The position numbers were made by a program, and so were the translations under genes. The notes under the pieces were generated by a model, which did not search any database, was not told the DNA's origin, and was given only the letters and a program-made list of their open reading frames with translations. This document shows positions 2,703 to 28,456 of a DNA stretch of 64,000 bases, one piece after another. Numbering within the stretch: the first letter of the stretch is position 1; the number at the start of each line of letters is the position of its first letter. The DNA lies in NCBI RefSeq assembly GCF_988242995.1, contig NZ_OZ547043.1. One strand, 5' to 3'.

Positions 2703-4085
2703 ATGAAAAAAAACAATAGCCGCCGTGAGTTTCTGAGCCAGAGCTGTAAGATGGTCACCGCCGCCGCGCTGTTTGGTACCTCTGTGCCGCTCGCCCATGC
2801 GGCAGTCTCTGGCACCCTAAACTGCGACGCGAATAACACCATGAAAATCACTGACCCGCACTACTATCTCGACAACGTGCTGCTGGAAACCGGTTTTGAC
2901 TACGAAAACGGTGTGGCGGTACAGACCCGCACGGCGCACCAGACCGTAGAGATTCAGAACGGCAAAATTGTTGCCCTGCGCGAGAACAAGCAGCATCCGG
3001 ACGCCACGCTGCCGCACTATGACGCTGGCGGTAAGCTGATGCTGCCCACCACCCGCGACATGCATATTCATCTCGACAAAACCTTTTACGGCGGGCCGTG
3101 GCGCTCGCTCAATCGCCCGGCAGGCACCACCATCCAGGACATGATCAAACTCGAGCAGAAAATGCTGCCGGAGCTGCAACCGTACACTCAGGAACGAGCG
3201 GAAAAACTGATCGATTTATTGCAGTCGAAAGGCACTACCATTGCCCGCAGCCACTGCAATATCGAACCGGTTTCCGGCCTGAAAAATCTGCAAAATTTGC
3301 AGGCGGTGCTGGCGCGACGTCAGGCGGGCTTCGAGTGTGAAATTGTCGCCTTCCCGCAGCACGGTTTGCTGCTGTCGAAATCGGAACCCTTAATGCGTGA
3401 AGCGATGCAGGCGGGGGCGCATTACGTCGGCGGTCTGGATCCGACCAGTGTTGATGGCGCGATGGAAAAATCCCTCGATACCATGTTCCAGATTGCGCTG
3501 GACTACGACAAAGGCGTTGATATTCACCTGCACGAAACCACTCCGGCAGGCGTGGCAGCCATCAATTATATGGTTGAAACGGTGGAGAAAACGCCGCAAC
3601 TGAAGGGCAAGCTGACCATCAGCCACGCCTTTGCGCTGGCAACGCTCAATGAGCAACAGGTAGATGAACTGGCGCACCGGATGGCGGCGCAGCAAATTTC
3701 TATCGCCTCGACGGTGCCGATTGGCACGCTGCATATGCCGCTCAAACAGTTGCACGACAAAGGCGTAAAAGTGATGACCGGCACCGACAGCGTTATCGAC
3801 CACTGGTCGCCTTACGGCCTGGGCGACATGCTGGAAAAAGCCAATCTGTACGCGCAGCTCTATATTCGTCCTAACGAACAGAACCTCTCCCGCTCGCTGT
3901 TTTTAGCCACTGGCGATGTATTGCCGCTCAACGAAAAAGGCGAGCGCGTGTGGCCCAAAGCGCAGGATGATGCCAGCTTTGTGCTGGTGGACGCCTCCTG
4001 TTCCGCCGAGGCGGTGGCGCGTATCTCGCCGAGAACGGCGACGTTCCATAAAGGGCAACTGGTGTGGGGGAGTGTGGCAGGTTGA
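2703..4085 (+). CDS. yahJ: amidohydrolase-family deaminase with Tat signal peptide
   Basis: 460 aa; N-terminal SRREFLSQ twin-arginine motif; metal-dependent hydrolase His motifs (HIHLD). Confidence 0.85.
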   Translation: MKKNNSRREFLSQSCKMVTAAALFGTSVPLAHAAVSGTLNCDANNTMKITDPHYYLDNVLLETGFDYENGVAVQTRTAHQTVEIQNGKIVALRENKQHPDATLPHYDAGGKLMLPTTRDMHIHLDKTFYGGPWRSLNRPAGTTIQDMIKLEQKMLPELQPYTQERAEKLIDLLQSKGTTIARSHCNIEPVSGLKNLQNLQAVLARRQAGFECEIVAFPQHGLLLSKSEPLMREAMQAGAHYVGGLDPTSVDGAMEKSLDTMFQIALDYDKGVDIHLHETTPAGVAAINYMVETVEKTPQLKGKLTISHAFALATLNEQQVDELAHRMAAQQISIASTVPIGTLHMPLKQLHDKGVKVMTGTDSVIDHWSPYGLGDMLEKANLYAQLYIRPNEQNLSRSLFLATGDVLPLNEKGERVWPKAQDDASFVLVDASCSAEAVARISPRTATFHKGQLVWGSVAG

Positions 4086-4379
4086 TACGCATTTGAAACG
4101 CCTGCAATGGTGAATCGTAAGAGATTTAAAGCCCCAGGGAGTGGGGCGGGAATGGTTTGTTAATGAATGATCCTGAACTTTATAATCTCCCGGCATAATT
4201 TCCAGGGGATTATTTGAGAGAAATACACAAAAGTGAGTTTTAACAATATTTATCAAGCCATAAATGTGACCTGCTTCGGATAAAAAAGATTAAAAATAGA
4301 AAAACCAATGATACTCTTGCTGATGGTTATCAACAGTAATTAAGATGTGATTTTTTTCCGTAATCGCGAAAATATTCTC

Positions 4380-4790
4380 ATGACCATAAAAGAAAAAATC
4401 TCACAAAAATATCCCCATGCTTCCTTTTGTACTTTTGGCGATTCAGCAGCGTTGGCCGATCACCTCGCAACGTTGATTGCGACAGGTGTTAAAACAGCTT
4501 CCTGTGGTTCGCTGGCGGGATGTATTGAAGACAACGCATTTCCGATGATTGGTGAGTATAAGATTGTAGAAAATAGCCGTGGTGAGCCTGTCTGTGTTAT
4601 CAGAGTGATTGGCCTGCATTTACTGCGCTTTTCTGATGTCACCGCGGAGCTTGCCCGTAAGGAAGGTGAAGGTGACCTCAGTCTTGAATATTGGCGTAAT
4701 GAACACCGTCGTTTTTTCCAGGCAGAAGGATGCTATTCACCCGAAATGGACGTTATCTTTGAAGAATATGCCCTTATTGACGTTGTGTAG
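4380..4790 (+). CDS. ASCH-domain protein (YqfB-like fold); not present at this locus in K-12
   Basis: 136 aa from ATG 4380 (MTIKEK...); ASCH-like sequence; an alternative GTG start at 4347 is possible; flanked by AT-rich non-coding DNA. Confidence 0.55.
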   Translation: MTIKEKISQKYPHASFCTFGDSAALADHLATLIATGVKTASCGSLAGCIEDNAFPMIGEYKIVENSRGEPVCVIRVIGLHLLRFSDVTAELARKEGEGDLSLEYWRNEHRRFFQAEGCYSPEMDVIFEEYALIDVV

Positions 4791-5040
4791 ATAACTATTT
4801 TTCTACGCGAAATAAGCTCACAAACATAAAGTATCGCTAATTTTGTTTATTTTGCTGTTTTTTACGTGATGATTGTCACACTTATTGTTACTGCCCGTTT
4901 TGTCCATATTTATAACCAAATTTTTAATAGCTGCCTGAAATAGGGCTGTTTATTCTGCATAAAAATATTCGAAAATTCTTATTCTCTCCAGCGCGCTAAT
5001 TTGGGCGAACACTTCCTGACTACCCTGCAATGAGGCTGAA

Positions 5041-6027
5041 ATGATGAATAAACGTTTTGTTATCAATATGGTGTCTTCGCTGTTATTAGGCGCTGCGCTA
5101 ATTTCTGCGCCGCTCCAGGCAGCGGAAAAAGTCGTGGTGAATATCTCTAAAGTCGATGGTATGCCGTGGTTTAATCGCATGGGCGAAGGTGTGGTCGAGG
5201 CGGGTAAAGCCTTTGGTGTTAATGCGTCACAGGTGGGGCCTTCAAGTACTGATGCTCCGCAACAGGTTAAAATCATTGAGGATTTAATCGCCCGTAAGGT
5301 TAATGCAATTACAATTGTGCCAAACGATGCCAACGTGCTGGAACCGGTATTCAAAAAAGCGCGAGATGCCGGAATTGTGGTTCTGACCAACGAATCCCCC
5401 GGTCAGCCAAGTGCTAACTGGGATATCGAAATCATTGATAACGAAAAATTTGCCGCTGAATATGTTGAGCATATGGCGAAACGCATGGGTGGCAAGGGCG
5501 GCTATGTGATTTACGTGGGTAGTTTGACCGTGCCGCAGCATAACTTATGGGCTGACTTGCTGGTGAAATACCAGAAAGAGCATTACCCGGATATGCATGA
5601 AGTTACCCGCCGCATGCCGGTTGCCGAGAGTGTGGATGACTCACGTCGTACCACACTGGACCTCATGAAAACCTATCCTGACTTGAAAGCGGTTGTCTCC
5701 TTTGGTTCAAACGGTCCGATTGGCGCGGGACGTGCAGTGAAAGAGAAACGGGCGAAAAATAAAGTCGCAGTCTATGGCATGATGATCCCTTCACAGGCGG
5801 CATCACTGATTAAAAGTGGTGATATCACCGAAGGGATTACTTACGATCCGGCCTCTGCAGGTTACGCACTCGCGGCCGTCGCCAGCACGTTGCTGAAGGG
5901 TGAAGAGATCAAACCTGGATTAGAAATGGAGAATCTCGGTAAGGCCGACGTAGATATGGATAAGCGAATTATCCGTTTCCATAAGGTATTACTGGTCAAC
6001 AAAGACAATATCGACTCACTTTATTAA
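5041..6027 (+). CDS. periplasmic monosaccharide-binding protein of a CUT2 ABC transporter (LsrB/YtfQ-like)
   Basis: 328 aa; signal peptide (LLGAALISAPLQAAEK); C-terminal ...VNKDNIDSLY resembles the LsrB family; first gene of a PBP-ATPase-permease-permease block. Confidence 0.8.
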   Translation: MMNKRFVINMVSSLLLGAALISAPLQAAEKVVVNISKVDGMPWFNRMGEGVVEAGKAFGVNASQVGPSSTDAPQQVKIIEDLIARKVNAITIVPNDANVLEPVFKKARDAGIVVLTNESPGQPSANWDIEIIDNEKFAAEYVEHMAKRMGGKGGYVIYVGSLTVPQHNLWADLLVKYQKEHYPDMHEVTRRMPVAESVDDSRRTTLDLMKTYPDLKAVVSFGSNGPIGAGRAVKEKRAKNKVAVYGMMIPSQAASLIKSGDITEGITYDPASAGYALAAVASTLLKGEEIKPGLEMENLGKADVDMDKRIIRFHKVLLVNKDNIDSLY

Positions 6028-6075
6028 TCCATTTCTTCGGGGCGAAAGCCCCGATTCTTATTGCCAGGGGATGCT

Positions 6076-7560
6076 ATGGAAACCTTCCTTTCCCTTCGTC
6101 ATATCAACAAAACGTTTCATGCCACGCGAGCGCTGCGCGATGTTTCTCTCGACTTTATGTCGGGTGAGGTGCACTGCCTTGCCGGGCAAAACGGCTGTGG
6201 TAAATCGACGTTGATTAAAATTATGTCCGGTGTTTATCGCCCGGATGAGGGGGCGGAAATTACGCTTGGTGGGAAAAACTGGTCAAAGCTGACACCCGCC
6301 GCTTCGGTGGCGCAGGGGATTCAGGTGATTTATCAGGACCTCTCTTTATTTCCTAACCTGAGTGTCTGGGAGAATATCGCCGTGAATCACTATCACCACG
6401 GTCTGTTTGTTAACCGCCGTCGTCTGCGTGAGGTGGCGCAGGCGGCAATGACCAGTATTAACGTCACATTGCCACTGGATACGCTCGTTTCTGAGCTTTC
6501 AATTGCCCGCTGTCAGCTGGTGGCAATTTGCCGTGCACTGGCGCAGGACGCACGGTTGATCGTGATGGATGAACCAACCGCTTCGCTGACCCATCAGGAA
6601 GTGCAAGGGTTATTACAGGTGGTGCATCAATTGCGGGAACGCGGGATCTGCGTGGTCTTCGTCAGTCATCGTCTGGAAGAAGTGATGGAAGTTTCCGACC
6701 GTATTTCAGTGCTGAAAGATGGTGAGCTGGTCGGGACCTTTCCGGCCGCAGAGATGACCACAAAACAACTCAGTTTTCTGATGACCGGCCAGGAGTTCGA
6801 ATATCAGGTACGAGAGTTGTGGCAGGGAAAATCCAGCACCCCGGTGCTGGAGGTGCGTAATTTAAGTCGTCATGGGGAATATCAAAATATTAACTTGCGG
6901 GTGGAAGCGGGCGAAGTGGTGTCGATTGTTGGCCTGCTTGGTGCGGGGCGCACGGAATTATGTCTGAGTCTGTTTGGTATGACCCGACCGGATGCTGGTG
7001 AGATCCTCATCAACGGTCAGCCGGTTACACTGCATAGTAACCAGGACGCCATCCGCCACGGTATTGGTTATGTTTCGGAAGATCGCATGTCGCGCGGTTT
7101 GGTGATGGCGCAATCTATTGAAGACAACATCATTAGCACTGTTTTTCACAAGGTAAAAGATCGCTTCGGCTTTCTGAGTGAAGCTAAAGTGCGTGACCTG
7201 GTGGACAGGCTAATCAAGGCATTGACCATCAAAGTCTCTGACCCACATCTCCCGGTGAATACGCTTTCCGGGGGTAACGCGCAGCGAGTATCGATCGCCA
7301 AATGGCTGGCGATTGGGCCACGACTGTTGATTCTCGATAGCCCGACAGTCGGTGTTGATATCGCCAACAAAGCAGGAATATACGGCATTATCAGCGATCT
7401 GGCGGCTCATGGCATTGCGGTATTGATGATCTGCGATGAAATTGAAGAAGCGTGGTATCAAAGCCACCGGATTTTGGTAATGCAGAAAGGTCAGATCACC
7501 CATAGCTTCCTGCCTGACAGCAGTTCTCAGGCCAGGATTGCGGAGGTGGTAAATGGCTGA
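6076..7560 (+). CDS. sugar ABC transporter ATP-binding protein with two nucleotide-binding domains
   Basis: Walker A GQNGCGKST and a second NBD (GLLGAGRTEL), LSGG signature motifs; ATG 6076 preceded by GGGGA Shine-Dalgarno; the track start at 6061 is TTG. Confidence 0.85.
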   Translation: METFLSLRHINKTFHATRALRDVSLDFMSGEVHCLAGQNGCGKSTLIKIMSGVYRPDEGAEITLGGKNWSKLTPAASVAQGIQVIYQDLSLFPNLSVWENIAVNHYHHGLFVNRRRLREVAQAAMTSINVTLPLDTLVSELSIARCQLVAICRALAQDARLIVMDEPTASLTHQEVQGLLQVVHQLRERGICVVFVSHRLEEVMEVSDRISVLKDGELVGTFPAAEMTTKQLSFLMTGQEFEYQVRELWQGKSSTPVLEVRNLSRHGEYQNINLRVEAGEVVSIVGLLGAGRTELCLSLFGMTRPDAGEILINGQPVTLHSNQDAIRHGIGYVSEDRMSRGLVMAQSIEDNIISTVFHKVKDRFGFLSEAKVRDLVDRLIKALTIKVSDPHLPVNTLSGGNAQRVSIAKWLAIGPRLLILDSPTVGVDIANKAGIYGIISDLAAHGIAVLMICDEIEEAWYQSHRILVMQKGQITHSFLPDSSSQARIAEVVNG

Positions 7561-8524
7561 ACTGAAAAAACGTCATGAATTCTGGCTGGCATTACTGATT
7601 GTGGGGCTGTTTGTTGGCCTTGCCTGGCGCAGCGACGAGTTTCTGACATTCGGTAATTTGTACGATCTCGCCAATAACTATGCCATGTTGACTATTCTCG
7701 CCTGTGGTTTGTTTGTGGTGTTAATTTCCGGTGGGATTGATATTTCGTTTCCGGCAATGACCATCATTGCGCAATACGGCATGGTGCTGTTGCTGCAAAA
7801 AATTGGTGGCAACTTTGCTGTCGCGTTTGCACTGGCGGGCGGCATCGGCATTTTACTTGGCTTAATAAACGCCTTACTGGTTAATCGCCTACGGGTGCCG
7901 TCTATCATCATCACCATTTCGACGCTGAATATTTTCTATGGCCTGCTGTTATGGTTGAGTAAAGGTGTGTGGCTGTACGACTTTCCGCCGTGGTTTGAGC
8001 AGGGGGTAATGTTGTTCAAGTACACCGATGCTGACGGCTATGACTATGGCCTTGGTCTGCCGCTGATCGCCATGATTACGGTGGTGCTGCTAACAGCGTT
8101 TATCATGAATTTCACCAGTGTAGGGCGCAAAATTTATGCCCTTGGCGGGAACCGTGAATCAGCCAGTCGCATCGGCTTTAGCGTGCTGAAACTGCAACTT
8201 TTCGTTTACGGCTATATGGGATTGATGTCTGGTGCTGCGGGTGTAGTGCAGTCGTGGACGGTGATGACTGTCGCCCCCGATTCTCTTCTGGGTTATGAGC
8301 TGACAGTACTGGCTGCGGTGGTGCTTGGCGGCACTAGTTTGCTCGGCGGGCGCGGCACGTTAACCGGTACTTTGCTCGGCGTGGTGTTGTTGGCAGTGAT
8401 GCAAAACGGGCTAAATTTATTGGGAGTCTCGTCTTACTGGCAAACATTGATCACCGGCATCATCATCGTTGCCAGCATTAGTGCCACGGCGTGGAGTCAG
8501 CATCAGAACCGGAGTCTGCTATGA
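7553..8524 (+). CDS. sugar ABC transporter permease
   Basis: 323 aa, multi-pass hydrophobic; start overlaps the ATPase stop. Confidence 0.8.
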   Translation: MAELKKRHEFWLALLIVGLFVGLAWRSDEFLTFGNLYDLANNYAMLTILACGLFVVLISGGIDISFPAMTIIAQYGMVLLLQKIGGNFAVAFALAGGIGILLGLINALLVNRLRVPSIIITISTLNIFYGLLLWLSKGVWLYDFPPWFEQGVMLFKYTDADGYDYGLGLPLIAMITVVLLTAFIMNFTSVGRKIYALGGNRESASRIGFSVLKLQLFVYGYMGLMSGAAGVVQSWTVMTVAPDSLLGYELTVLAAVVLGGTSLLGGRGTLTGTLLGVVLLAVMQNGLNLLGVSSYWQTLITGIIIVASISATAWSQHQNRSLL

Positions 8525-9477
8525 AAAAATCGTGGCGTAACAACGTTGAGTTTTACTTGATCGGCCTGCTGGTGCTAACTGTTGCAGCCTTCAGCATTAC
8601 TATGCCGGAGATTTTCTGGTCGATAAGTAATTTCCAGTCCGTCGCTTCGCAAATGCCCGTGCTGGGCATTCTGGCGTTGGCTATGGCGGTGACCATGCTT
8701 TGCGGTGGCATTAACTTGTCAATTATTGCCACTGCTAACGCCTGTTCACTGGTAATGGCGTGGGTGGCGACTCAGTATCCACCGGGTATTGCTACGGTTG
8801 TCGCTACGCTGCTGGCGGGCGCTGGCGCGGCGGTGATAATCGGTTTATGTAACGGCGTATTGATTGCTGGTATTCGAGTGTCGCCAATTCTTGCAACGCT
8901 TGGGATGATGACGTTGCTCAAAGGGGTAAATATTCTGGTGACAGGCGGTAGCGCCATTGCCAATTATCCCTCATGGGTGCTGTGGTTGAATCATGCGCAA
9001 TGGTTCGGTATTCCGCTACCGATGTGGTTGTTTGCCGCAGTGGCACTGGGGCTGTGGATATTGCTGGAGAAAACGCCGCTCGGTAAAGCCATTTATCTGA
9101 TTGGTTCTAACGAACGAGCAACACTTTACTCCGGTATTAACACTCGTCGGGTGCTGATATGGGTGTATGTCATTTCCGCCTTACTTTGTGCGGTAGCGGC
9201 ATTTTTGATGATGTCGAAACTCAACTCGGCTAAGGCCTCTTATGGCGAATCGTACTTGCTGGTGTCAATCCTCGCGGCAGTACTCGGCGGGGTTAATCCG
9301 GACGGCGGCAGCGGGCGGATAATTGGTATGGTGCTGGCGCTGTTTCTTCTGCAAATTATTGAAAGCGGCTTCAATATTCTCGGTATAAGCCCCTACCTGA
9401 CGATGGCCTTATGGGGAACGTTGCTGCTCTGTTTCATTCAGGCTCGCGGCATGTTGGGGCTGGATCGGGTGGTTTAA
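8521..9477 (+). CDS. sugar ABC transporter permease (second subunit)
   Basis: ATG 8521 overlaps the upstream stop (ATGA); hydrophobic 318-aa product. Confidence 0.8.
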   Translation: MKKSWRNNVEFYLIGLLVLTVAAFSITMPEIFWSISNFQSVASQMPVLGILALAMAVTMLCGGINLSIIATANACSLVMAWVATQYPPGIATVVATLLAGAGAAVIIGLCNGVLIAGIRVSPILATLGMMTLLKGVNILVTGGSAIANYPSWVLWLNHAQWFGIPLPMWLFAAVALGLWILLEKTPLGKAIYLIGSNERATLYSGINTRRVLIWVYVISALLCAVAAFLMMSKLNSAKASYGESYLLVSILAAVLGGVNPDGGSGRIIGMVLALFLLQIIESGFNILGISPYLTMALWGTLLLCFIQARGMLGLDRVV

Positions 9478-9563
9478 ATATTGGCTATATTCAATGGACG
9501 CGTTTTGCCGCGATGACATATCAGGCATCGCCAAATACACATAGCTAATCAGGAGTAAACACA

Positions 9564-23667: not shown

Positions 23668-23689
23668 GCCACTGACCTGTGTCAGTGGC
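23668..23689. terminator. bidirectional hairpin between convergent codA and cynR
   Basis: GCCACTGAC-CTGT-GTCAGTGGC, 9-bp perfect stem. Confidence 0.6.
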
Positions 23690-24588
23690 TACCGTGATTC
23701 ATTCCCGCCAACAACCGCGCATTCCTCCAACGCCATGTGCAAAAATGCCTTCGCGGCGGCTGTCTGCCAGCTATTTTTCCGCCGCAATAAAACCGCCGTT
23801 CTCTCCAGTAACGGTGGGGCAAGGGATATAGCTTTAAGCCCGTCATGTTGTGTGGCAATCGCTGCTGGCAACAATGTGGAAAGGGAAGTGCGGCGAATCA
23901 GCTCCAGAACCGCGCTAATTGAGTTCGCCTCAATGACCACCTGTGGATGTAGCCCCGCTTTCTCGCAGTAGTGGTCAATTTGCTCTCTGGTGGCAAATTC
24001 CGCGCTGAGCAGGACCAGTTTTTCATCATGCAAGCGACTCAACGCCACCTGTTCACAGGCAGCCAGCGGATGATGTTGCGCCACGACTAACGCTAAACTT
24101 TCTGTCAGTAAAGGAATTGCCTCCAGCTCCGGCGAATGCACAGGCGCGAAGGCAATCCCAACGTCCAACTCGTCGCGACAAAGCAGATCTTCGATTTTCT
24201 CCTGCGACATTTCCTGTAGCTGGAGCGTGATGCCGGGGTAGCGCGCATAGAAATCCGCCATTAAAGGGCCGATAAAGTAGCTTGTAAAGGTGGGAGTGAC
24301 GGCGATACGCAGCGATCCTCGCGTCAGATCGGCAACATCATGAATCGCCCGTTTACCCGCCCCCAGTTCCTGTAACGCCCGGCTGGCGTACTGTCGCCAG
24401 ACTTCTCCTGCATCAGTGAGACGAATCGTTCGCCCGCTACGGTCAAACAGCGGCACGCCTAAACTCTCCTCTAACTGGCGAATCTGCTGGGAAAGCGCAG
24501 GCTGGGAGACGTGCAACGCACTGGCGGCACGGGTAAAGCTGCCATGTTCAGCCACGGCAAGAAAATAATTGATATGTCGAGAGAGCAT
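23689..24588 (-). CDS. cynR: LysR-family regulator of the cyn operon
   Basis: 299 aa from [18 protein letters not shown]... (LysR HTH). Confidence 0.9.
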
Positions 24589-24697: not shown

Positions 24698-25357
24698 GTG
24701 AAAGAGATTATTGATGGATTCCTTAAATTCCAGCGCGAGGCATTTCCGAAGCGGGAAGCCTTGTTTAAACAGCTGGCGACACAGCAAAGCCCGCGCACAC
24801 TTTTTATCTCCTGCTCCGACAGCCGTCTGGTCCCTGAGCTGGTGACGCAACGTGAGCCTGGCGATCTGTTCGTTATTCGCAACGCGGGCAATATTGTCCC
24901 TTCCTACGGGCCGGAACCCGGTGGCGTTTCTGCTTCGGTGGAGTATGCCGTCGCTGCGCTTCGGGTATCTGACATTGTGATTTGCGGTCATTCCAACTGT
25001 GGCGCGATGACCGCCATTGCCAGCTGTCAGTGCATGGACCATATGCCTGCCGTCTCCCACTGGCTGCGTTATGCCGATTCAGCCCGCGTCGTTAATGAGG
25101 CGCGCCCGCATCCCGATTTACCGTCAAAAGCTGCGGCGATGGTACGTGAAAACGTCATTGCTCAGTTGGCTAATTTGCAAACTCATCCATCGGTGCGCCT
25201 GGCGCTCGAAGAGGGGCGGATCGCCCTGCACGGCTGGGTCTACGACATTGAAAGCGGCAGCATCGCAGCTTTTGACGGCGCAACCCGCCAGTTTGTGCCA
25301 CTGGCAGCTAATCCTCGCGTTTGTGCCATACCGCTACGCCAACCGACCGCAGCGTAA
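24698..25357 (+). CDS. cynT: beta-carbonic anhydrase
   Basis: 219 aa; CSDSR and HxxCG zinc-ligand motifs. Confidence 0.9.
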
Positions 25358-25369
25358 CCTTATTTTTAA

Positions 25370-25858
<489 letters not shown>

Positions 25859-26181
25859 CAGCCATGCGCAACCATCAAAAGACGTTCACGATGCTGCTGG
25901 TTCTGGTGCTGATTGGTCTTAATATGCGACCACTGCTCACCTCCGTCGGGCCACTGCTACCGCAATTGCGCCAGGCAAGCGGAATGAGCTTTAGCGTGGC
26001 TGCCCTGTTGACCGCTCTGCCGGTGGTTACCATGGGCGGGCTGGCGCTGGCCGGAAGCTGGCTTCATCAGCATGTCAGCGAACGTCGCAGCGTCGCCATC
26101 AGTTTGTTACTGATTGCCGTCGGTGCATTGATGCGTGAGCTTTACCCCCAAAGTGCGCTGCTGCTTAGCAGCGCACTGCTT

Positions 26182-26893
26182 GTGCACAGAAAACCCCCAG
26201 CTAGGCTGGGGGTTCCGGAAAGCTTTCAGCTTTGAGCCAGTTATTAAAACCCCTTTTGATTTGTTAAAACACCTTGCGGTCTGGCAACTGCAAGTGTCAA
26301 ACAAGAAATCAAAAGGGGGTCCCAATGGGGAACGAAAAGAGCTTAGCGCACACCCGATGGAACTGTAAATATCACATAGTTTTTGCGCCAAAATACCGAA
26401 GACAGGTGTTCTACAGAGAGAAGCGTAGAGCAATAGGCAGTATTTTGAGAAAGCTGTGTGAGTGGAAAAGCGTACGGATTCTGGAAGCTGAATGCTGTGC
26501 AGATCATATCCATATGCTTGTGGAGATCCCGCCCAAAATGAGCGTATCCGGGTTTATGGGATATCTGAAAGGGAAAAGCAGTCTGATGCTTTACGAGCAG
26601 TTTGGTGATTTGAAATTCAAATACAGGAACAGGGAGTTCTGGTGCAGAGGGTACTACGTCGATACAGTGGGTAAGAACACGGCGAAGATACAGGATTACA
26701 TAAAGCACCAGCTTGAAGAGGATAAAATGGGAGAGCAGTTATCGATTCCCTATCCGGGCAGCCCGTTTACGGGCCGTAAGTAACGAAGTTGGATGCAAAT
26801 GTCAGATCGTGTGCGCCTGTTAGGGCGCGGCTGGTAAGAGAGCCTTATAGGCGCATTTGAAAAACCTCCGGCTATGCCGGAGGATATTTATTT
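26182..26893 (+). mobile_element. IS200 (IS200/IS605 family) insertion, about 712 bp
   Basis: Interrupts the cynX reading frame; 5' terminal hairpin CCCCCAGC-TAG-GCTGGGGG (26194..26212); Y1 transposase gene; 3' hairpin CCTCCGGC-TAT-GCCGGAGG (26865..26883) followed by a T-rich tract; boundaries accurate to a few bp. Confidence 0.85.
26325..26783 (+). CDS. tnpA: IS200 TnpA (HUH / Y1 transposase)
   Basis: 152 aa from MGNEKSLAHTRWNCKYHIVFAPKYRR...; HUH motif (DHIHMLVEI) and catalytic Tyr region (RGYYVDTVG). Confidence 0.9.
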   Translation: MGNEKSLAHTRWNCKYHIVFAPKYRRQVFYREKRRAIGSILRKLCEWKSVRILEAECCADHIHMLVEIPPKMSVSGFMGYLKGKSSLMLYEQFGDLKFKYRNREFWCRGYYVDTVGKNTAKIQDYIKHQLEEDKMGEQLSIPYPGSPFTGRK

Positions 26894-27796
26894 GGTGGAG
26901 TGGGGATCGGCATCATTCAGGCAGTGATGCCTTCGGTAATTAAGCGGCGGTTTCAGCACCGTACGCCACTGGTGATGGGGCTGTGGTCCGCGGCTCTGAT
27001 GGGCGGCGGTGGACTTGGTGCCGCCATTACGCCCTGGTTAGTTCAACATAGCGAAACCTGGTATCAAACACTCGCCTGGTGGGCGCTGCCTGCCGTTGTT
27101 GCGCTCTTTGCCTGGTGGTGGCAAAGCGCCCGCGAGGTCGCCTCTTCTCACAAGACAACAACCACTCCGGTTCGCGTGGTATTTACTCCCCGCGCGTGGA
27201 CGCTGGGTGTTTACTTCGGTCTGATTAACGGTGGTTACGCCAGCCTGATTGCCTGGTTACCCGCTTTCTATATTGAGATTGGTGCCAGCGCGCAGTACAG
27301 CGGTTCCTTGCTGGCATTGATGACGCTTGGGCAAGCAGCAGGGGCATTGCTGATGCCTGCTATGGCTCGCCATCAGGATCGGCGCAAACTTTTGATGCTG
27401 GCGCTGGCGTTACAACTGGTGGGGTTCTGCGGCTTTATCTGGCTGCCGCTGCAATTGCCGGTATTGTGGGCAATGGTGTGTGGGTTAGGTCTGGGCGGCG
27501 CATTTCCGCTCTGTTTGCTGCTGGCGCTCGATCACTCTGCGCAACCCGCTATTGCTGGCAAACTGGTGGCGTTTATGCAGGGGATCGGTTTTATCATCGC
27601 CGGGCTTGCCCCGTGGTTTTCTGGTGTGCTGCGTAGTATCAGTGGCAATTACTTGATGGACTGGGCGTTTCATGCGCTGTGCGTCGTTGGGCTGATGATC
27701 ATAACCCTGCGTTTTGCACCAGCACGTTTTCCGCAGCTGTGGGTCAAAGAGGCATGATGCGACGCTTGTTTCGCCAGATAATGGAAGAGTGAATTA

Positions 27797-27827
27797 TTGT
27801 CGGATGTGCCCAATGGCGCATCCGACA
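27797..27827. repeat. REP element
   Basis: TGTCGGATGTGCCCAATGGCGCATCCGACA palindrome between cynX and lacA. Confidence 0.6.
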
Positions 27828-27844
27828 TTTATTTCAGTGCTTAT

Positions 27845-28456
27845 TTAAACTGAAGGTTCAACTTTATAATCTTTGTAATAATAGTGCTTATCCCGGTCGT
27901 TTATTTCGCGAATAACCCGGCAAGGAACGCCAGCAGCCACGACGTTTGGTGGAATGTCTTTTATGACGACACTACCCGCGCCAATAACAGAATTATCCCC
28001 GATGGTGACGCCTGGATTAATGACCACATGACTTCCGATCCAGACGTTATTGCCAATCGTTATCGGAAAAGAGTACATCTCACCGTTTTTTCTCAATTCA
28101 TGGTGTACAGGGTGTCCCGTAACGGAAAGAGTAACATTGGGAGCAATCAGTACGTTATCACCGATTGTTACCGTGTAGTCATCGACAATGGTTAAATTAA
28201 AATTTGCATAAAAATTGCGGCCTATATGGATGTTGGAACCGTAAGAGAAATAGACGGGTGGTTCTACCCAGGCGTTTTCCCCTACCGTGGCAAACATTTC
28301 TTTAATCAGGCTTTCTCTTTTTTCAACTTCTGATGGATGCGAGTGATTAAACTCATACATTAACGTTTTCCCACGAAGTCTTTTTTCCGGTAAGCCTTCG
28401 CACATATCGGTAAATAGCTTGCCTGCTTTTATTCTTTCGGTCATCGACATGTTCAT
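27845..28456 (-). CDS. lacA: galactoside O-acetyltransferase
   Basis: 203 aa from MNMSMTERI...; hexapeptide-repeat acetyltransferase. Confidence 0.95.
   Translation of the reverse strand: MNMSMTERIKAGKLFTDMCEGLPEKRLRGKTLMYEFNHSHPSEVEKRESLIKEMFATVGENAWVEPPVYFSYGSNIHIGRNFYANFNLTIVDDYTVTIGDNVLIAPNVTLSVTGHPVHHELRKNGEMYSFPITIGNNVWIGSHVVINPGVTIGDNSVIGAGSVVIKDIPPNVVAAGVPCRVIREINDRDKHYYYKDYKVEPSV

Follow-up and report, generated by a model that had tools for sequence, protein, structure and literature searches.

Salmonella IS200 measures about 707 bp; it has a terminator hairpin at nt 12-34 and, within the 5'UTR, a stem-loop at nt 69-138, together with one tnpA gene and the art200/STnc490 antisense region (PMC4513863). 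The stem-loop at nt 69-138 masks the Shine-Dalgarno sequence (PMC4513863, PMC5435999). In the wider family, a Y1 transposase cuts out the top strand in the form of a single-stranded circle and pastes it into single-stranded DNA, preferentially the lagging-strand template (PMC5027513). Here we describe a copy of the E. coli element IS200C that splits cynX, a gene whose product is characterized only as a "putative cyanate transporter" (PMC6627978). A literature search found no paper joining cynX with IS200. The cynX copy shares the architecture of Salmonella IS200 but is of the E. coli subtype, with a length of 712 bp. Like the founding polar insertion, Salmonella hisD984::IS200, it is intragenic; unlike that insertion, it is predicted to have no polar effect on other genes, because cynX is the final gene of the cynTSX cyanate operon and lacA is convergent with it. 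The closest known relatives are the IS200C copies of E. coli (e.g., tnpA product WP_000526135.1), which match it at all 712 bp, so that tnpA, the terminator hairpin of the left end, the stem-loop of the 5'UTR and the hairpins of the right end are all identical. These copies differ in location alone, and no other complete genome examined carried one in cynX.

We further compared the cynX copy with IS608 of Helicobacter pylori and with ISDra2. These elements share with IS200C the Y1 HUH fold family (E of about 4e-19 to PDB 2a6m), subterminal hairpins, the lack of terminal inverted repeats and of target duplication, and insertion 3' of a short specific sequence, and the orientation of IS200C is consistent with the lagging-strand template used by the family (PMC5027513). 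They differ in that IS200C is without tnpB, and in that the IS200C flank is a TT following a T-rich run and a hairpin, and not a fixed motif of four or five nucleotides (TTAC or TTGAT, for instance). In IS200C the right-end cleavage point follows the hairpin on its 3' side at a distance of 10 nt, and the spacing from right-end hairpin to cleavage in IS608 is also 10 nt. Among less related elements, group IIC introns insert after intrinsic terminators. ISPpu9 inserts into REP sequences (PMC8450116). Both resemble IS200C in preferring hairpin-forming, usually harmless intergenic sites, but their enzymes and mechanisms are unrelated to those of IS200C and the likeness is functional only.

The window (the whole stretch of DNA analysed, 64,000 nucleotides) comprises the E. 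coli codBA-cynR-cynTSX-lacAYZI-mhp region, with gene order and annotation that agree with K-12 and other genomes. The synteny cynR-cynT-cynS-cynX-lacA was conserved around the split cynX (Table 1), and cynT and cynS, described as intact in an earlier note made from the sequence, were indeed so when compared with K-12. Elsewhere in the window, positions 4086-9563 hold a four-gene segment for a sugar/autoinducer-2-type ABC transporter together with an ASCH-domain gene. Of the 5,426 complete E. coli genomes, only 2,211 covered at least 80% of this segment, which marks it as a variable accessory segment of the region. For the 23 kb from 26894 to 50000, the top complete-genome match (AF39) reached only 98.9% and most genomes about 97.7%. 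The RefSeq complete-genome set accordingly does not include the source strain, and either its lineage is sparsely sampled or the segment is recombinant.

Table 1. Coordinates of the cyn genes, the inserted element and the associated hairpins in the window
Feature	Coordinates	Strand	Description
cynR	23689..24588	-	LysR-type regulator, intact; aligns full-length with the K-12 CynR translation; annotated orthologues
cynT	24698..25357	+	Carbonic anhydrase, intact; 219 aa, 1 substitution vs K-12
cynS	25388..25858	+	Cyanase, intact; 156 aa, 2 substitutions vs K-12
cynX 5' fragment	25864..26181	+	106 codons from ATG 25864; 97 from the K-12 start, 25891
cynX hairpin	26152..26177	+	Perfect 11 bp, 4-nt loop, coding; proposed target determinant
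IS200C complete copy	26182..26893	+	712 bp, cynX orientation; single copy within the window
Left-end perfect hairpin	26192..26214	+	Fold -11.7 kcal/mol; equivalent to IS200 nt 12-34, a bidirectional transcription terminator (PMC4513863, PMC5435999)
5'UTR stem-loop	26250..26318	+	Fold -19.9 kcal/mol, z = -5.2; equivalent to nt 69-138 (PMC4513863)
tnpA	26325..26783	+	152-aa Y1 HUH transposase; HUH = H61-I62-H63, Tyr125
Right end	26812..26893	+	Interior imperfect hairpin 26812-26855, subterminal hairpin 26865-26883, tail ATATTTATTT
cynX 3' fragment	26894..27757	+	Codons 107-393 plus stop
cynX-lacA terminator hairpin + TTTATT	27798..27833	+	Unoccupied site of the Ec-U4-19 IS200C insertion, 27833/27834

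The earlier note had claimed that cynX was split by an IS200 copy, and had suggested alignment against K-12 cynX and an IS200 reference as a check. This alignment returned the empty site (...GCACTGCTT/GGTGG...) and delimited a clean insertion at 26182-26893, exactly the 712 bp that had been given, with cynX picking up again at 26894 on a codon boundary. The K-12 empty site (CTGCTT/GGTGG) was split exactly and there was no target duplication at the cynX site, as previously described, and the junction position can slide by microhomology TT/G (26180-26183). Two details of the earlier description required qualification. The 106 codons assigned to the 5' part hold when counted from the ATG at 25864, but not from the K-12 start. 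Similarly, the statement that cynX resumes in frame is right for the codon series, which continues, and wrong for the physical frame, which is shifted by +1 since 712 = 3x237+1. Past 26181 the cynX frame runs into IS sequence and ends at a TGA (26233-26235), giving a fusion ORF of 123 aa.

Deletion of 26182-26893 in silico restored an open cynX of 1182 nt and 393 codons. The reconstructed gene showed 96.9% nucleotide identity to that of K-12, with 5 amino-acid differences over 384 residues (379/384 identical), and its product is orthologous to E. coli K-12 CynX (b0341), an MFS protein assigned to the cyanate porter family. The reconstructed 393-aa CynX was an exact match to a common natural protein (2,293 index blocks list the identical sequence), and MFS_1 is on record for this identical protein. 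Moreover, the cynX flanks were colinear and gap-free, with 98.3-99.1% identity, against genomes in which cynX is intact. Both fragments of cynX are best annotated together as one pseudogene interrupted by IS200C, and the cynX::IS200C allele can be specified by junction k-mers such as GCGCACTGCTTGTGCACAGAAAACC and GGATATTTATTTGGTGGAGTGGGG.

Across its full 712 bp the insert showed 100% identity to the copies of strains Ec-U4-19 and 15.03CC, which RefSeq labels "IS200/IS605-like element IS200C family transposase". It is thus IS200C, a member of the IS200 group of the IS200/IS605 family, and it carries all the group-defining features that can be tested by sequence. Its 152-aa product, read in the earlier note as a HUH/Y1 transposase, matched Pfam Y1_Tnp (PF01797; E = 4.4e-38, residues 11-129) and NCBIfam transpos_IS200 (NF033573; 147.7 bits, cut-off 55) and had PDB relatives 2ec2 and 2a6m (the latter IS608 TnpA; E = 4e-23 to 4e-19); its HUH motif and catalytic Tyr lined up with those of the solved homologue 2ec2. 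The tnpA gene was the sole long sense ORF of the element, and no tnpB was present.

Hairpins at both ends had also been reported, and both were recovered (26192-26214 and 26865-26883). They are direct, not inverted, repeats of one another with 78% identity, and no terminal inverted repeats were found in the copy. The end hairpins, the interior hairpin of the right end (26812-26855) and the 5'UTR stem-loop folded far better than shuffled controls, and the right-end subterminal hairpin gave a terminator-like call on both strands. A scan of the whole window against Rfam returned RF01405 (STnc490) at 26192-26315, scoring 146 bits where the gathering score is 56, and no other match. This match lies on the + strand, i.e., the tnpA-sense strand, and takes in the left-end terminator hairpin. 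STnc490/art200 has been described as antisense to the tnpA 5'UTR (PMC4513863). The RF01405 match therefore marks the IS200 left end, and the strand of the sRNA is not to be inferred from it.

We then focused on the insertion site. The insertion point lies 4 nt past the 3' end of the hairpin at 26152-26177, which the earlier note had missed. K-12 cynX contains it as well, no other perfect hairpin of at least 8 bp occurs within the gene, and it folded as DNA at -14.8 kcal/mol (z = -5.9). With the IS removed, the window contained three perfect hairpins of at least 11 bp, including this one, and by a post hoc estimate 0.047% of its strand-positions lie within 10 nt 3' of such a hairpin.

For comparison, we collected 23 loci from species-representative genomes of seven enterobacterial genera by the exact 35-nt left end, in addition to E. 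coli copies; further E. coli sites were obtained with an IS-only query whose matches were sampled across the ranking. The left flank ended in TT at all 31 distinct IS200C sites (E. coli plus seven other genera). Among 25 distinct left flanks, T occupied -1 and -2 in every case and -4 to -6 in at least 22. The last 40 nt of these flanks had a mean folding energy of -18.1 kcal/mol, compared with -6.9 for 3,000 TT-preceded controls, and a perfect stem of at least 7 bp ended within 10 nt of the junction in 19/25 flanks, compared with 2.3% of TT controls and 6% of TTTT controls. The pattern at six additional E. coli sites was identical in kind (TT, hairpin). Nearly all of the 31 left flanks were composed of a GC-rich hairpin and a T-tract, that is, they were host intrinsic terminators. 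The cynX site was the only intragenic one (1/31; the other 30 were intergenic), and it reads GCTT where almost all others read TTTTTT, so that it is off-consensus for want of a T-tract.

Several observations were made alongside this pattern. At nearly all of the examined sites IS200C was co-oriented with the upstream gene, and a convergent gene's stop codon frequently formed the right flank. The right flank of the secF-yajD copy resembled that of the cynX copy. The Ec-U4-19 copy (4041-4752 of its locus) was compared with the empty site in the window and showed no target duplication. Two strains therefore carry independent IS200C insertions about 1.65 kb apart, both directly past a hairpin. We also considered the upstream hairpins as parts of the element; this was rejected, as their sequence differs at each site and they are already present in empty sites (K-12 cynX, the cynX-lacA terminator). 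A preprint has independently reported an excess of terminator-like sequences just upstream of ISs, which is strongest for IS200/IS605 (bioRxiv 10.1101/2025.07.22.666184). The general terminator association is thus already reported, and what the present data refine is the placement to the base and the exception within a coding sequence.

The split cynX is very probably the outcome of transposition, in which a complete, presumably active-type IS200C entered the gene in the orientation of the operon. By analogy with the "peel and paste" of IS608 and ISDra2, the top strand of the IS would leave as a single-stranded circle and enter the single-stranded lagging-strand template. The GC skew was positive on the + strand over the whole window, which places the IS top strand on the lagging-strand template, an orientation consistent with the family mechanism. 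Judging from the flanks compared above, IS200C would land immediately 3' of a hairpin and a T-rich tail ending in TT, normally an intrinsic terminator, and this target geometry resembles the right end of the element itself (a hairpin, then 10 nt ending TTTATTT). The cynX gene was probably hit because its coding sequence has a perfect 11-bp hairpin followed by GCTT.

How the hairpin would act could be explained in two ways: TnpA may bind it directly as a mimic of the right end, or the state of the single-stranded template, exposed or stalled at the hairpin, may favour a hairpin with a T-ending tail. We tentatively suggest, as a possibility held with somewhat less than even confidence, that IS200C targets are chosen by structure, a hairpin with a short T-ending tail being recognised by the transposase or in the single-stranded lagging-strand template, with terminators serving as safe harbours and strong coding hairpins as rare hotspots even where a T-tract is missing. 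For the cynX site, the hairpin explanation is based on one intragenic case and a post hoc probability.

The strongest competing explanation accepts the insertion as real but takes the site to be a chance TT-ending one, and attributes the terminator association to purifying selection and not to hairpin recognition. All 30 other examined sites are intergenic, where selection would spare insertions, and the proximity of intergenic copies to hairpins could in part be due to the survival of harmless insertions rather than targeting. Furthermore, IS608 uses a left-end guide to read a short tetranucleotide in single-stranded form as its target, with no hairpin required (PMC5934647, PMC3597680). Yet intergenic T-runs are plentiful away from hairpins, while the junction was almost always 1-9 nt from a stem, and even the TTTT-preceded controls were stem-adjacent in just 6%. 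The cynX insertion, which selection would not favour, nevertheless falls 4 nt past the only strong hairpin of the gene, for which the chance is about 5e-4. We therefore regard the explanation by chance and selection as unlikely.

We next assessed how widely the element and the allele are distributed. IS200C-like DNA was detected in 3,099 of 5,426 complete E. coli genomes, at up to 35 places per genome. A search of the same 5,426 genomes with a 912-bp query that included 100-bp flanks found the IS at cynX 26181/26182 in none (0/5,426). The single match with 100% coverage, in Ec-U4-19, was rejected as a same-site carrier, since it consisted of three joined pieces; cynX is intact in that strain and the IS lies in the cynX-lacA spacer. 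The gene was also intact in AF39, the nearest complete genome (98.9%), and exact look-ups of the 123-aa, 114-aa and 285-aa (V or M start) products in the protein index gave no match. Given its absence from the 5,426 complete genomes, the cynX::IS200C allele looks private or rare as judged from sequence. IS200 has been called nearly dormant (PMC4513863, PMC5435999), so identity among copies is no reliable clock for the age of the insertion. The exact 35-nt left end was also present in species-representative genomes from Brenneria, Citrobacter, Kluyvera, Entomohabitans, Yersinia pekkanenii, Kosakonia and Raoultella, which implies that a nearly unaltered element has recently spread horizontally across the Enterobacterales.

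The distribution bears on two further explanations. Loss of CynX may have been selected in this lineage, as opposed to being a neutral or mildly deleterious accident; inactivation of genes by ISs is at times adaptive in general, and there was no direct support for it here. We consider this improbable, as the allele is apparently private (0/5,426 genomes), the intact allele with the identical protein sequence is widespread, and no parallel cynX disruptions were seen, the nearby IS200C of Ec-U4-19 leaving cynX whole. An assembly artefact, in which the repeated IS200C was misplaced into cynX and the true genome has an intact gene, would fit an allele found in 0/5,426 genomes, truncated and fusion products not found in the exact-sequence protein index, and a multicopy repeat prone to mis-joining, but it is highly implausible, since both junctions are base-perfect with genuine hallmarks (no duplication, TT at -1/-2, an upstream hairpin and lagging-strand-template orientation) and a mis-join is unlikely to yield these hallmarks or the codon-exact empty site.

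Taking transposition into cynX as the preferred reading, we predicted its consequences. CynX would end after residue 106 of its 393, extended by 17 IS-encoded residues, and from this sequence the product should be non-functional, as an MFS protein without most of its helices. The IS200 left-end hairpin reportedly stops about 85% of incoming transcripts (PMC5435999), and most cynTS transcripts are accordingly predicted to end at the left-end terminator of the IS. A promoter scan of 25300-27950 found no sigma-70-like sites from which the cynX 3' fragment could be transcribed. The fusion ORF has its stop codon (26233-26235) 3' of the left-end terminator hairpin (26192-26214), and transcripts terminated there would lack a stop, making them non-stop mRNAs and, speculatively, candidates for tmRNA rescue. 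Production of cyanase and carbonic anhydrase should continue, and it is reasonable to predict that cyanate detoxification is kept while the putative permease is lost.

As an event the insertion is ordinary: a known IS, identical to annotated copies, in a new location. At the strain level, CynX is most likely abolished and the cyn enzymes are spared, which amounts to a small metabolic change with an uncertain phenotype. It nevertheless shows that an element often called dormant has transposed in nature, apparently in this strain alone. If the structure-guided reading is true, what is new is the base-level placement and the direct recognition of hairpins. The intragenic exception supports the idea that IS200C is steered to hairpin-plus-T sites, which are normally terminators, and this insertion beside a coding hairpin is a naturally occurring case on which the choice of targets by structure can be tested.
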